Shown here: piece after piece, positions 1,709 through 23,739 of the stretch
Layout of the letters: the number at the start of each line of letters is the position of its first letter
Position numbering within the stretch: position 1 is the first letter of the stretch
DNA from: Microcoleus sp.
GTDB taxonomy: Bacteria; Cyanobacteriota; Cyanobacteriia; Cyanobacteriales; Microcoleaceae
Assembly: GCA_042408215.1 (NCBI GenBank)
Contig: JAYFMW010000017.1
Location: 448,001-512,000 of the forward strand
Reading direction: 5' to 3'
DNA length: 64,000 nt
The notes under the pieces: model-generated
The model's input: only the letters and a program-made list of their open reading frames with translations
The model's database searches: none
What the model was told of the DNA's origin: nothing
Made by a program: the position numbers and the translations under genes

Positions 1709-3053
1709 TTGACACTCCCCAGCCTAAAGGCGTGGGGATTCTTTGTTCATAGAGCTAACGTGCTGCGGACAGGATTTCTCCAACCAGAGTAGAGGTCAAT
1801 TCTCCCAAAGCGTTGCTTGCGTTAAGCGCAAAGGTTCCGGTATGTCCTACCGTACCCAATCCTCGACTCAGGATATTTCTAGCTGCGTTTTCATCCCTAT
1901 CAAGAGTGCATCCACACTTGCAAACGTGCGTCCTCGTGGATAGCGTTTTCTTGACAATTGCACCGCAGCTAGAGCATTCTTGGCTAGTGTATTGTGGATT
2001 TACCGCAACCGTAACTCTTTCAAATACTTTGCCAAAGTATTCCAGCCAGATACGGAACTGATACCAAGAAGCATCGTTAATAGACTTAGCTAAACAATGA
2101 TTTTTCACCAGATTTTTAATTCTCAAATCTTCGTAAGCTATCAAGTCGTTTGACTGAACTACGCACCGCGCTAATTTCACAGCGTGGTCTTTGCGTTGCC
2201 GACTTATTTTGAGATGGCGTTTTCCTAAAATCTGTCTAGCTTTGCCTCTATTTTTTGAACCTTTAACTTTTCTAGAAACGCGACGTTGAGAGCGCTTAAG
2301 AACTTTTTCACCTGTTCGGAGGAATCTCGGATTTTCAACCGTCACTCCATTTGAATCGGTGTAATATTCCTTCAAACCAACGTCTAATCCGATGGTATTT
2401 CCAGAAGGCTCTATGTTTTCCTTTCGAGCGACATCGACACAGAATTGAACGTACACGCCGTCTGCACGTTTTACCAATCTTACCCGTTTGATTTGGGCGA
2501 TTTGATAGAAATGCAAATCCCGTGTTCCCTTTAATTTGAGTTTACCAATCCCTTTTTTGTCGGTGAATTTGATTGATTTTCTGTCATCCGCAAGTTTCCA
2601 TCCAGTTGATTTATACTCAACTGAGCGACAGTCTTTCTGGAATTGTGGATATCCTTTTTTACCAGGAATTGACTTTTTGCAGTTCTCGTAAAATCGGGAG
2701 ATAGCAGACCAGGCTCGTTCAGCACTGGCTTGTCTAGCTTGAGAGTTAAGTTCGTCGGCAAACGGGAAGTTATGAGCCAATACAGCACAATATTTGTTTA
2801 AATCGTACTTATCTATTTTTTTGTTGTCCATCCAATAGCGCAAACAGCTATTGCGGACAAATTGTGCTGTACGAATCGCTTCATTTACTGCTGCAATCTG
2901 ATTTGATTTTCCGTAAGCTTTGAACTCAAAAACTAGCATCGCCTTACCTCCTGCCTTATACTAGATCTTTTAGCACAAGATTTGCTGGTATTGTAACAAA
3001 GGTTTACAATTAAAGCCGTCCTAAAAGGACGGGGTTTTAAACCCAATTTCCTG
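1709..3053 (-). mobile_element. IS200/IS605-family element, tnpB-only (IS1341-like), copy 1
   Basis: Left-end hairpin (AAACCCCGTCCTTTTAGGACGGCTTT on the - strand, ~3012-3042) preceded by TTTAT. Right-end hairpin ending GAGTGTCAA at 1709. Both ends align with copy 2. No tnpA. Confidence 0.85.
1755..2939 (-). CDS. tnpB: RNA-guided endonuclease TnpB
   Basis: 394 aa. RuvC motifs GLDVG, AYEDL, DRDENAA; Zn finger CSSC...CKCG. Confidence 0.95.
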   Translation of the reverse strand: MLVFEFKAYGKSNQIAAVNEAIRTAQFVRNSCLRYWMDNKKIDKYDLNKYCAVLAHNFPFADELNSQARQASAERAWSAISRFYENCKKSIPGKKGYPQFQKDCRSVEYKSTGWKLADDRKSIKFTDKKGIGKLKLKGTRDLHFYQIAQIKRVRLVKRADGVYVQFCVDVARKENIEPSGNTIGLDVGLKEYYTDSNGVTVENPRFLRTGEKVLKRSQRRVSRKVKGSKNRGKARQILGKRHLKISRQRKDHAVKLARCVVQSNDLIAYEDLRIKNLVKNHCLAKSINDASWYQFRIWLEYFGKVFERVTVAVNPQYTSQECSSCGAIVKKTLSTRTHVCKCGCTLDRDENAARNILSRGLGTVGHTGTFALNASNALGELTSTLVGEILSAAR

Positions 3054-4593: not shown

Positions 4594-6555
4594 ATGACAA
4601 CGCTAGATGACAATGCTAATCAAATTGATTTAAACATTCCGGGATTAGGCCCGGATACAATTTTTGCCGGAGCCGGGGCTGATTTCGTTAGAACTTCCAC
4701 CCTGGGCGGCAGCTTAATATTTGGCCAAGCCGATAACGATACTCTTATTTCTGTTGGCCCGAACGATACTTTGCATGGCGACAATGACGAAGACTCACTC
4801 AGATCTCAGGGCACACCCGCCTGGCTGTATGGCGAAGCAGGTAATGACACCATAGTCGCTCAAGGCCGCGCTACGATGGAGGGCGGTGATGGAGACGACT
4901 TCATGCAAGCTACTGCCGATGCTAACCGGATGCTTGGCAATGGGGGCAACGATACGATGCTGGGCGGGGCCGTTGGCAGAGACACCCTCTACGGTGGCAA
5001 GGAGAATGACTCCTTGGGGTTCTTCACCGCAAGCGGAGGCAACAACCTCGGTCTTAACCTAACTGGAGGCTCCGGTGGCAATCAAGGAAGCAACTACTTG
5101 CGGGGCGACTCGGGGGACGACTTGGTTGTGGGCATCAATATCAGAGACACCCTCCTAGGCGGTAAAGGCAACGACACGCTGGTGGGTGTGGCGAGCAACA
5201 GCTATCTGTCTGGCGATAATGGCGACGATTCTTTATATATTAAGAATCCTACCCAGATCCAATTCAACTCATTCACTGGTAACAACAACGATACTGTGAC
5301 TGTCGGCGTTGAAAAAATCACTTTGCGGGGCGGTGCGGGCAACGATACTATCACTGGCGGTTACGGCCAGTCGGGTGGTGGCAAAAACTTGTTTGATGGG
5401 GGCGAGGGTAACGACAGGATCACGGTTTTCGCCACGCAAGATACCGCCCTCGGAGGTGCAGGCGACGACTTCATCGAATCGACTACTGCGCCACCCTCAT
5501 TTAACCCATTACCTAACTTAGCGGGCCAGACATATGTAGGCAGTCGGAACTCTCTCGACGGCGAGGCGGGCAACGACACGATCGTCGGTGGCTATGCGTC
5601 TGATACGATACTTGGCGGTGCAGACAGCGACAGCCTGAGCGGTATCTTTAAGCTAGGCTCCGGTGGAGACGGCAACGATACGATCATTGCCAGTGTCGCT
5701 TTTGGTGGTACTACTCCTATTTCTATTACTCTCGAAGGTGGCCTGGGCGACGATTCCTTAGTTGGCAATGTTAATGCCGGCACCGTCACCAACTTCATGA
5801 ACGGTGGCGCAGGGAATGACACAATCATCTTTGGCTCCACGGGCGATAAGTTGATTGGCGACTTTGCGGGTAACGACTTCATCTCCTATTCCAGTGTTAA
5901 CTTTACCGGTTTTACAACGACGAACCTGATTACCGACAACTTAGGCAACAACTTCATCGATGGCGGCAGCGGCACTGATTCCATAACTACTGGTGACGGG
6001 ATTGACGTACTGTTCGGTCGGGCTGGAGACGATACCTTGAATGCCGGTGGCGGGAACGACACGCTGTTCGGCGACGTTGGTAACGACTATTTGCTCGGAG
6101 GTAATGGTAACGACTCTCTCGGCGGCGCGATCGGTGCTGACACGCTGATTGGCGGCGCGGGTAGTGACAGCTTCTACTACAACAACTCCGGCGAGGGCGT
6201 CGCGCTCGACAGCCTCACCGGCTTCCCCGTCACTACCGGCTTTGGTACCAACCCAGACCAAATCGGCGATTTTAACCCCAGTGAAGACAAGTTTATCTTA
6301 CAGTCCAGCCAATTCGGCTTTGGTACAGTTAGTGTGCCAAGTCGCCTAGCTTCTCAGTCATTCTTGACGGTTGACGCTGGGACTTACAACACCACTACGC
6401 CAGCTCCAACAGGATCATCACCGTTAATCGTTTACGAAGCTGCAAATGGCAGGCTGCTGTACGATGCTGACGGCCAGGGTGGTAAAGATCATATTTACCT
6501 TGCACTTCTGGCCGGCACACCGAGGCTTAATGCGGATAACATTACCCTGATTTAA
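4594..6555 (+). CDS. RTX/hemolysin-type Ca2+-binding surface protein, oscillin-like
   Basis: 653 aa with dozens of GGxGNDxL nonapeptides and a C-terminal GRLLYDADGQG..LALL..LNADNITLI type-I-secretion-like tail. Confidence 0.85.
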   Translation: MTTLDDNANQIDLNIPGLGPDTIFAGAGADFVRTSTLGGSLIFGQADNDTLISVGPNDTLHGDNDEDSLRSQGTPAWLYGEAGNDTIVAQGRATMEGGDGDDFMQATADANRMLGNGGNDTMLGGAVGRDTLYGGKENDSLGFFTASGGNNLGLNLTGGSGGNQGSNYLRGDSGDDLVVGINIRDTLLGGKGNDTLVGVASNSYLSGDNGDDSLYIKNPTQIQFNSFTGNNNDTVTVGVEKITLRGGAGNDTITGGYGQSGGGKNLFDGGEGNDRITVFATQDTALGGAGDDFIESTTAPPSFNPLPNLAGQTYVGSRNSLDGEAGNDTIVGGYASDTILGGADSDSLSGIFKLGSGGDGNDTIIASVAFGGTTPISITLEGGLGDDSLVGNVNAGTVTNFMNGGAGNDTIIFGSTGDKLIGDFAGNDFISYSSVNFTGFTTTNLITDNLGNNFIDGGSGTDSITTGDGIDVLFGRAGDDTLNAGGGNDTLFGDVGNDYLLGGNGNDSLGGAIGADTLIGGAGSDSFYYNNSGEGVALDSLTGFPVTTGFGTNPDQIGDFNPSEDKFILQSSQFGFGTVSVPSRLASQSFLTVDAGTYNTTTPAPTGSSPLIVYEAANGRLLYDADGQGGKDHIYLALLAGTPRLNADNITLI

Positions 6556-9050: not shown

Positions 9051-9097
9051 GATTTGCCGTTGGATGGGAGATTTGCGGTTGGGTGGGGCGGGTTTAC

Positions 9098-10437
9098 CGA
9101 AAAACTGGGTCTAAAGCCCCGTCCTTCTAGGACGGCTTTGTAAAGCTTTGCAAACATAGAGAAAAATCTTATATCTGCTGGAGTAATATAAGGTGGGAGG
9201 TCAAACAATGCTAGTTTTTGAGTTTAAGGCCTACGGAAATAAGAGTCAATTTGTAGCAGTAGATGAAGCAATTCGTACAGCACAATTTGTCCGCAATAGC
9301 TGTATTCGGCTGTGGATGGACAACAACAAGATTGGGCAATACGACTTGCAGAAATACTGTGCCGTACTGGCTCATGAATTTCCATTTGCTGACGCACTCA
9401 ACTCTCAAGCAAGACAAGCTAGTGCCGAACGAGCTTGGTCTGCCATCTCTCGATTCTACGACAATTGCAAGAAGAAAAACCCTGGCAAAAAAGGGTATCC
9501 GCAGTTTAAAAAAAACTGTCGTTCTGTCGAGTATAAAACTAGCGGATGGAAACTCGCCGAAGATAGAAAGTCTATAACCTTTAGCGACAAAAAAGGGATA
9601 GGCAAGCTTAAACTAAAAGGTACTCGCGACCTGCATTTTTATCAAATTAGCCAAATCAAACGGGTGAGATTGGTAAAAAAGGCTACGGGAGTATACGTTC
9701 AGTTTTGTATTGACGCTGAGCGAAAAGAGAATACTGAACCAACAGGAAAGACTGTCGGTATAGACATGGGATTGAAGGAATTTTACACCGACTCAAACGG
9801 AGTAATGGTTGAAAATCCCAAGTTCCTCAGAGCAGGCGAAAAAGTTCTAAAGCGGTGTCAGCGCCGCTTATCTAGAAAAGTAAAAGGTTCAAAAAATAGA
9901 GGCAAAGCTAGGCTGATTTTAGGAAAGCGCCATCTCAAAATAAGTAGGAAACGTAAAGACCATGCTGTGAAGTTAGCACGGTGCGTAATTCAGTCAAACG
10001 ACTTGATAGCTTACGAAAATTTGAGGATAAAAAATATGGTGAAAAATCACTGTCTAGCTAAGTCGATTAACGACGCTTCTTGGTATCAGTTCCGTGTCTG
10101 GATTGAATATTTTGGTAAAGTATTTGAGAGAGTCACGGTTGCTGTCAACCCAGCATATACCAGCCAAGAATGCTCTAACTGTGGTGAAATTGTGAAAAAA
10201 ACGCTATCCACTCGCACCCACGTTTGTAAATGTGGTTGTGTGATGGATAGAGATGAAAACGCAGCTAGAAACATCTTAAGTCGAGGATTGAGTACGGTAG
10301 GGCATACCGGAACTTTCGGACGAGATCCGAGCAACGCTTTAGGAGAATTAACCTCTACTTTGATTGGAGAAATCCGGTCATTGCAAGTTAGCTCGTAGAT
10401 TAAAGAATCCCTGCGCGTTTACGCCAGGGAGTGTCAA
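9098..10437 (+). mobile_element. IS200/IS605-family element, tnpB-only, copy 2, inserted in a REP-like repeat
   Basis: TTTAC|CGAAAAACTGGGTCTAAAGCCCCGTCCTTCTAGGACGGCTTT left end; AAGAATCCCTGCGCGTTTACGCCAGGGAGTGTCAA right end. The flanks rejoin into a GGGCGGGTTTAC...AACCCGCCCCTAC repeat. Confidence 0.85.
9208..10398 (+). CDS. tnpB: RNA-guided endonuclease TnpB
   Basis: Close paralog of copy 1. GIDMG, AYENL, DRDENAA and the Zn finger are intact. ATG at 9208 chosen by alignment with copy 1. Confidence 0.95.
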   Translation: MLVFEFKAYGNKSQFVAVDEAIRTAQFVRNSCIRLWMDNNKIGQYDLQKYCAVLAHEFPFADALNSQARQASAERAWSAISRFYDNCKKKNPGKKGYPQFKKNCRSVEYKTSGWKLAEDRKSITFSDKKGIGKLKLKGTRDLHFYQISQIKRVRLVKKATGVYVQFCIDAERKENTEPTGKTVGIDMGLKEFYTDSNGVMVENPKFLRAGEKVLKRCQRRLSRKVKGSKNRGKARLILGKRHLKISRKRKDHAVKLARCVIQSNDLIAYENLRIKNMVKNHCLAKSINDASWYQFRVWIEYFGKVFERVTVAVNPAYTSQECSNCGEIVKKTLSTRTHVCKCGCVMDRDENAARNILSRGLSTVGHTGTFGRDPSNALGELTSTLIGEIRSLQVSS

Positions 10438-10565
10438 GAGATTATGCGTTTTCGGCAATTATTGTCTGTGAACCCGCCCCTACGGTATTTTTTCAAGAGG
10501 TAGATTGTGATTGATGGTGGCGCGGGGGCTGGTTAATCAGGAATTATTGCACCTTAAATCCGCCC

Positions 10566-23669: not shown

Positions 23670-23739
23670 GTAGGGGCGGGTTTTACCAACCATCAGTGCC
23701 TAAAACCAATAATCTCATAAACCCGCCCTCACCCAACCC
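23670..23739. repeat. GTAG-type REP-like repeat (GTAGGGGCGGGTTT...AAACCCGCCC), uninterrupted relative of the TnpB copy 2 target site
   Basis: Its reverse complement aligns end to end with the rejoined flanks 9077-9097 + 10438-10483. Confidence 0.85.

Follow-up and report, generated by a model that had tools for sequence, protein, structure and literature searches.

The window analysed here, a 64,000-nucleotide stretch of a Microcoleus sp. contig (JAYFMW010000017.1, positions 448,001 to 512,000), carries a TnpB element within a dispersed, GTAG-type palindromic repeat. The guide of a TnpB is expected from the right flank of its element, and the predicted guide is therefore repeat-derived, as the original prediction had pointed out. 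The question is whether this guide is programmed against the repeat family, with homing into or erosion of the family as possible outcomes, or against the empty allele of a single site.

The element, its empty allele and the interrupted repeat

The element (window 9098..10437, + strand, 1340 bp) is a TnpB-only IS200/IS605 element of the IS1341 type. Its left end (LE) starts with CGAAAAACTGGG and its right end (RE) finishes with GAGTGTCAA, the last letters being TCAA. Close copies with different flanks have identical boundaries, and in silico excision of 9098-10437 gave back the intact repeat, just as had been proposed. The same locus without the element occurs in the congeneric genome G005 (contig C299), with an exact empty junction, the TTTAC motif and an identical 20 nt of right flank. 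The joint 9097→10438 was also found in contigs of DNA runs X1 and X4, and a contig of run X17 makes the same skip, its two sides separated by 10 letters. The insertion was scarless, located 3ʹ of the motif and without target duplication, a feature of family members, and it was not present at the orthologous locus in the relatives inspected. The empty G005 allele with its identical flank indicates that the insertion is recent and that the flank has been unaltered since.

In distant relatives, this intergenic gap is filled by other repeats, and two of them have a sister repeat copy resembling the variant on contig C6 described below. The gap lies between convergent genes and is a turnover hot spot, where relatives carry several unrelated small repeats. 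In the relative G008, a different IS605 element of the TTAT type (locus L014, G008:C216:1525-1559) sits at the point corresponding to window ~10548, some 110 bp to the right of where the focal element inserted. Elsewhere in the window, positions 4594-6555 (+) encode a 653-aa glycine-rich repeat protein with the look of calcium-binding RTX repeats, judged by eye from the ORF list.

The tnpB gene (9208..10398, +; ATG at 9208, stop at 10398) encodes 396 aa with the Pfam domains OrfB_IS605 and Cas12f1-like_TNB, a zinc-finger domain, and aligns with ISDra2 TnpB at E 3e-35. The RuvC catalytic triad D186, E270 and D349 is intact in the sequence, in agreement with the catalytically intact TnpB of the original prediction, and its retention rules out a TldR, a nuclease-dead TnpB repressor. 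The element contains no tnpA. In contigs of runs X15 and X17, a close tnpB copy has a 24-nt insert, resembling a small mobile repeat, at the point corresponding to window 9461.

The predicted omegaRNA scaffold (10295..10437, +, with an approximate 5ʹ limit) consists of covarying stems, a right-end hairpin (10408-10430) and the terminal TCAA. Covariation among 40 sequences revealed compensatory pairs at 10340:10402, 10299:10305 and 10413:10425, and the focal copy retains all predicted pairs; in addition, a GGGCA/GGACA loop could pair with the terminal UGUC. The scaffold thus looks intact, with a single-sequence fold of only z=-1.8. Rfam gave no scaffold match, with one chance snoRNA match (E=0.86), and a promoter scan found four sites, all on the - strand, compared to 2.3 expected. 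None of the assembled run contigs joins the element to its right flank, and the RNA runs X15 and X17 are represented by contigs, which carry no information on RNA ends, strand or level.

The left half of the interrupted repeat (9077..9097, +) forms the 5ʹ arm, and the right half (10438..10483, +) comprises the loop, the 3ʹ arm and CTAC, which is GTAG on the - strand. When rebuilt, the repeat is a hairpin with a GC-rich stem, a spacer of ~33 nt and GTAG at one foot, and it is extragenic and multicopy. A pattern search of the 7.36 Mb source genome (G000) yielded 210 de-duplicated copies in 144 clusters, which exceeds chance. At the arm position, 98 copies have TTTAT and 35 have TTTAC, and the focal insertion motif falls in the predicted stem. 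No enrichment of insertions at this position was observed in the source genome for either TTAC or TTAT elements. The repeat arm holds 33 of the 9,153 intergenic TTAC sites and 1/45 TTAC elements, compared to 0.16 expected (P=0.15); for TTAT elements the count was 1/92, a 289-bp mini-element at C21:25401, compared to 0.64 expected, and for relatives' elements at a similar arm it was 1/108. Two more TnpB-type ends (C3:138190 and C6 minus 462146) are flanked on the right by sequence from the repeat's right half. The former is a right end with an RNA-like hairpin that abuts the repeat and has no recognisable left end or tnpB. A Y1/RAYT gene flanked by this repeat family was not found in the source genome; around a RAYT-like Y1 gene at C30:637637-638008 lie eight or more copies of another GTAG repeat (GTAGGGTGCGTCGC).

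Insertion motif and predicted guide

The original prediction took TTTAT as the target-adjacent motif (TAM), noting that TnpB copy 1 is preceded by TTTAT. This is true of copy 1 (window ~1709-3053, -), yet that copy is 80% identical, has the LE guide AAAA and belongs to another subfamily. All three copies at ≥92% identity follow TTTAC, as the focal element does (9093..9097, +; core TTAC), and the LE DNA guide of the focal element, which lies at +16 to +19 at the foot of a subterminal hairpin (9113..9136, +), reads AAAG (9113-9116). The guide was related to the motif by the letter-by-letter pairing rule of IS608. Our catalogue lists 205 candidate right ends. A left end lay within range of 167, and for 155 of these the LE guide predicted the motif, the pairs being AAAG-TTAC, AAAA-TTAT, CAAG-TGAC and GAAA-TCAT. 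Pairing of LE DNA guides with the insertion motif is described in two earlier reports (10.1101/2023.03.14.532601; PMC6006769). In a subset of left ends (C6:1012557, C10:46102, C5:324743 and C30:529627), a GCGGAGCGTAGCGGAG-like insert of ~16 nt lies between the motif and the DNA guide and shifts their spacing from 15 to 31, with the guide-motif rule still valid.

The protein sequences track the same distinction. Among 18 TnpBs of at least 74% identity, positions 16, 44 and 48 alone fully separate the 4 TTAC proteins from the 14 TTAT proteins; residues 44/48 are Q/Q in the former and K/N in the latter, and position 16 is variable. In the TnpB tree, the fourth TTAC protein stands apart from the other three, and the forks are open enough for a single origin to be compatible. 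Positions 44 and 48 (codons in window 9337-9351) lie in a helix that aligns, with a register uncertain by ~2 residues, near Y52/S56 of ISDra2, residues that contact the -1 TAM base according to the structure paper (PMC10097598). The exchange of Q44/Q48 for K44/N48 is a candidate determinant of the choice between C and T at TAM position -1. From the TTTAC-flanked copies, the LE guide AAAG and Q44/Q48, we infer that the TAM of this TnpB is TTAC/TTTAC, and not TTTAT.

The predicted guide comprises the first 16-20 nt of the right flank (10438..10457, +) and corresponds to the variable loop of the repeat, as a consequence of insertion at the top of the stem. It is identical in the empty allele of G005 and private to that allele. 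By analogy with IS605 biology, a TnpA acting in trans would have inserted the element at TTTAC, and an RNA would read 16-20 nt into the right flank. The source genome has 20 Y1 matches, two of which adjoin left ends whose hairpin is the same and whose DNA guide is CAAG; no TnpA gene beside an AAAG-type left end was found among the 18 Y1 loci inspected. Cyanobacteria have several chromosome copies. Once excision has left an empty allele, or where another chromosome copy holds one, TnpB would cut it and recombination would bring the element back (restorative homing). The motif is common to TnpA and TnpB, and donor joints are cleaved by TnpB (10.1101/2023.03.14.532601).

For the uninterrupted sister repeat at 23670..23739 (-), the original description was accurate: TTTAT (23721-23717) is followed by a 17/20 match (23716-23697) with the first eight letters perfect and mismatches at guide positions 9, 10 and 16. 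Among TTTAC sites, the closest to the guide are C3:219865 and three tandem copies at C6:92092-92274, the latter at 17/20 with the same mismatches (9, 10 and 16). Across all TTAC/TTAT sites of the source genome, leading guide matches reached a maximum of 8, at 5 TTAC and 8 TTAT sites, and every site differed from the guide at two or more of positions 1-12. A TTAT copy at C20:6407 had two mismatches in 16 nt, at positions 7 and 10. Among 79 congeneric genomes, several of them incomplete, TTAC followed by 12 nt of the guide was found in one, at the orthologous empty site of G005. In ISDra2, double mismatches at positions 1-12 abolish cleavage (PMC10097598). With the seed rule for the focal TnpB transferred from ISDra2 and ISDge10, all sister repeats, with at least two mismatches in positions 1-12, are predicted to escape cleavage, although binding may occur.

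These matches do not support a guide directed at the family instead of at one empty allele; the mismatches at positions 9-10 recur at the best sites, and no better-matching copy exists, which at the level of sequence is one of the outcomes that the original prediction had named as refuting it. The element ends, the exact empty allele, the unaltered private flank, the seed mismatches and the lack of enrichment at the repeat arm can be read directly from the sequences, and we consider it highly probable that the element entered one already divergent repeat copy after TTTAC and that cleavage by its TnpB would be confined to the empty form of that site, with the sisters spared. The locus itself is ordinary, and the guide is an ordinary empty-allele guide. 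As 15/24 comparable TTAC copies have no 12-nt twin, the non-self-targeting of the focal insertion needs no selection.

Second targets across the genome

The source genome has ~200 IS605-type right ends and 142 TnpB-like ORFs of at least 150 aa (100 of at least 340 aa), together with many mini-elements of 180-500 bp, and at least five insertion motifs coexist. For none of 177 paired IS605 elements (0/155 plus 0/22 held-out) did the motif followed by a 12-nt guide match occur elsewhere in this genome. The length k=12 was taken from the ISDra2 seed, with k=8-20 examined, and the left flank served as control, since no guide comes from it. From the 155, we set aside 5 whose motifs are rare and 12 whose flanks are nested or run into contig ends; of the clean set of 138 that remained, 70 are protein-less. 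At k=12, left-only matches numbered 8, compared to 8.9 or 4.4 expected under two nulls, right-only matches 0 (9.3 or 4.4 expected) and matches on both sides 0 (9.5 or 2.9 expected). For any match on the right, 0 stood against 7.3-18.8 expected (P 5e-4 to 2e-9). Discordant elements were 8 left versus 0 right at k=12 (p=0.008), 10 versus 0 at k=11, and 3 versus 0, which is non-significant, at k≥14.

When repeated 16-mers were counted over rebuilt empty sites with long repeats masked, there were 0 at motif+12, compared to 18.8 under the intergenic null or 7.4 under the all-sites null, and the dip has shoulders on either side of the junction. Hairpin occlusion or GC content was rejected as the cause of this deficit, as folding/GC strata still expect ~19. 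In the held-out set, in which 22 paired elements were scored and 58 unpaired ends left out, the counts were left 0 and right 0 at k=12, and left 0 and right 2 at k=11; the combined k=11 result was 10 versus 2 (p=0.04).

A cross-genome set was assembled from 297 congeneric loci, of which 109 elements could be paired and 108 remained after one nested element was dropped, and these were scored against the source genome as a proxy repeat library. The set is almost entirely of family A, since the family-B left-end pattern occurs in only 1/8 relatives. With at least two copies required, left-only, right-only and both-sided matches numbered 5, 0 and 0 against a background of 3.1, 3.1 and 2.9, with 6.0 expected for any match on the right. 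With at least one copy, they numbered 7, 3 and 0 against 6.2, 5.8 and 4.0, and this lenient count alone (7 versus 3) gave p=0.34. Pooled with the source genome, the strict count was 13 versus 0 (p=0.0002) and the lenient count 15 versus 3 (p=0.008), in both cases over kin that are non-independent. Three elements of relatives (L059, L071 and L013) occupy the final motif of an array of 7-bp tandem units and have their guide outside it, which would fit a filter against second targets.

Whether guides had changed after insertion was assessed at five other left-only elements in 10 genomes. Four had exact empty alleles in G005 with the first 20 nt of the right flank unaltered, and for the fifth no orthologue was found in these genomes. 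The four alleles indicate that the junction calls are valid and favour survival at private sites over later mutation of the guide; at these four sites and at the focal one, where the empty allele is identical, post-insertion guide mutation is rejected as an escape from self-targeting. Homing into twin sites was likewise rejected. Among the 205 candidate ends of the source genome there were three groups with shared right flanks, one being a mis-hit to a paralogous gene and two reflecting one duplicated segment on C23 and C28, in which both copies are occupied; neither an unoccupied twin site nor spread of one guide was found. The duplicated segment (C23:19500-22800 and C28:256788-261844) carries the same mini-element in both copies, and each mini-element harbours, at one shared internal position, a nested IS605-type end that differs from the other's.

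We slightly favour the reading that TnpB autoimmunity shapes where IS200/IS605 elements persist, with insertions whose right flank has a motif+12-nt twin being purged, protein-less mini-elements served in trans included. Double-strand breaks are typically lethal unless repaired (10.1101/2023.03.14.532601), and insertions with true second targets would for this reason be purged. Judged by the genome statistics, self-cleavage would remove insertions when the genome offers a second match to the motif plus 12 nt of their guide, and survivors within repeats would sit at points with conserved repeat sequence to the left and private sequence to the right, like the focal element. The footprint suggested by these data, which rest on small numbers, is one-sided: left flanks lie in repeats as often as the background predicts, which is not true of guide-side flanks. 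On the autoimmunity reading, and with the same reserve, the focal element would have survived at the boundary, with two seed mismatches standing between it and cleavage of four repeat copies.

A competing account, only somewhat less credible, holds that the element is ordinary and that second targets are missing for reasons unrelated to TnpB, namely target choice by TnpA 3ʹ of the motif, young repeats or the choice of null. The expectation indeed shifts from 7 to 19 with the null, the 16-mer dip extends to both sides of the junction, right flanks are slightly AT-richer (GC 0.36 versus 0.40) and the held-out elements were even at k=12. Moreover, the asymmetry was measured in IS605-type elements alone; non-TnpB IS candidates numbered only 14, none with terminal inverted repeats. 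Against this account, the background is symmetric (left-only 8.9, right-only 9.3) where 8 versus 0 was observed, the folding/GC strata leave the expectation undiminished, the focal motif itself lies within a predicted stem, and other genomes deviate in the same direction. We regard the genome-wide signature of TnpB self-avoidance as moderately supported and testable.

The locus matters as an edge case that exposes this wider pattern. Should properly controlled analyses of closed genomes bear out the one-sided deficit, TnpB would be active against its own host chromosome in nature, guides of mini-elements would be loaded in trans, self-cleavage would limit insertion sites, and seed length, TAM strictness and in vivo TnpB activity could be read from genomes alone. 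No report of a flank asymmetry or of purged self-targets was found in the literature searched.

Fate of the sister repeats and relation to known systems

Binding of the sister repeats without cutting is improbable, if less so than their cleavage. TnpB with this guide would bind several sisters through the TAM and an 8-nt seed and act as a weak roadblock at repeat clusters. Four TTTAC repeat copies have 8 leading matches and 16-17/20 overall (C6:92092, 92183 and 92274; C3:219865), and the focal element ranks top of 155 in near-cognate sites (8 sites with TTAC, at least 6 leading matches and at least 16/20), which leaves room for such binding. ISDge10 TnpB with a 10-nt guide binds and does not cut (PMC13507860), and off-targets in dTnpB ChIP are TAM-dependent with a weak seed. 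However, binding peaked at 10 nt in the ISDge10 study, TAM-driven binding would cover ~55,000 TTAC sites among which the repeat is not special, and the insertion is absent at the locus in the relatives inspected, giving no sign of a conserved function.

Cleavage of the sisters, leading to homing into or erosion of the family, is very improbable: the intact D-E-D triad, the 17/20 matches, the two-sided homology that would permit repair from the element, the several host targets suggested in PMC10097598 and the possible relevance of C20:6407, should a TTAT-type TnpB load this RNA, are set against at least two mismatches in positions 1-12 at all sisters, no second copy of the element found in the repeat in the source genome, and the absence of perfect-seed sisters from the 78 other genomes too, so that nothing seems eroded. 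The shared guides among real ends, the lack of enrichment at the repeat and the unaltered flank likewise offer no indication of homing or erosion. Of the original reading, the intact TnpB and the repeat-derived guide from the right flank stand; the TTTAT TAM, the targeting of the family and its homing or erosion do not, and on sequence evidence the family-targeting reading is largely refuted, with repeat homing or erosion unlikely.

Several known systems can be compared with the focal locus. GTAG REPs (Di Nocera et al. 2013, PMC3733652), including the cyanobacterial GTAG-12, -15 and -16, are likewise extragenic and multicopy with a GC-rich stem, have GTAG at one foot and occur singly or in tandem clusters; their tabulated loops are 2-20 nt, whereas the spacer of the focal repeat is ~33 nt. 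The focal family also differs in lacking a Y1/RAYT gene that it flanks in the source genome. Tobes and Pareja reportedly described, in 2006, insertion sequences that target REPs. The focal element resembles these, and the IS110/IS1111 elements with bridge RNA, in being an IS within a palindromic repeat, but the repeat arm, with its 1/45 TTAC and 1/92 TTAT elements, is occupied within chance. A precedent for guide-directed action on identical unoccupied copies is the TnpB gene drive of multicopy plasmids (10.1101/2025.02.20.638934), and one for binding without cutting is given by TldRs; in contrast, the sister repeats here are non-identical in the seed and the focal TnpB is not nuclease-dead. 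The ISDra2 structure paper proposed that a 12-bp seed gives several host targets and might aid propagation (PMC10097598), which was not borne out at 12 nt in the source genome.

The closest counterparts are the IS605-family TnpB-omegaRNA systems (ISDra2, PDB 8h1j/8bf8; ISGst1-4 of Geobacillus; IS608 for the geometry of the ends), with which the focal element shares a TnpB homologue with the D-E-D triad, LE and RE hairpins, a four-letter DNA guide that lies at the base of the LE hairpin and covaries with the motif, the RE letters TCAA, a guide from the right flank and an empty allele that is a perfect target. It differs from them in having no tnpA, in its TTAC/TTTAC motif, in a flank that happens to be a repeat and in a host with ~200 related ends, which makes a genome-level test of second targets possible. 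These comparisons indicate that the focal element is a typical TnpB-only member of the IS200/IS605 family.
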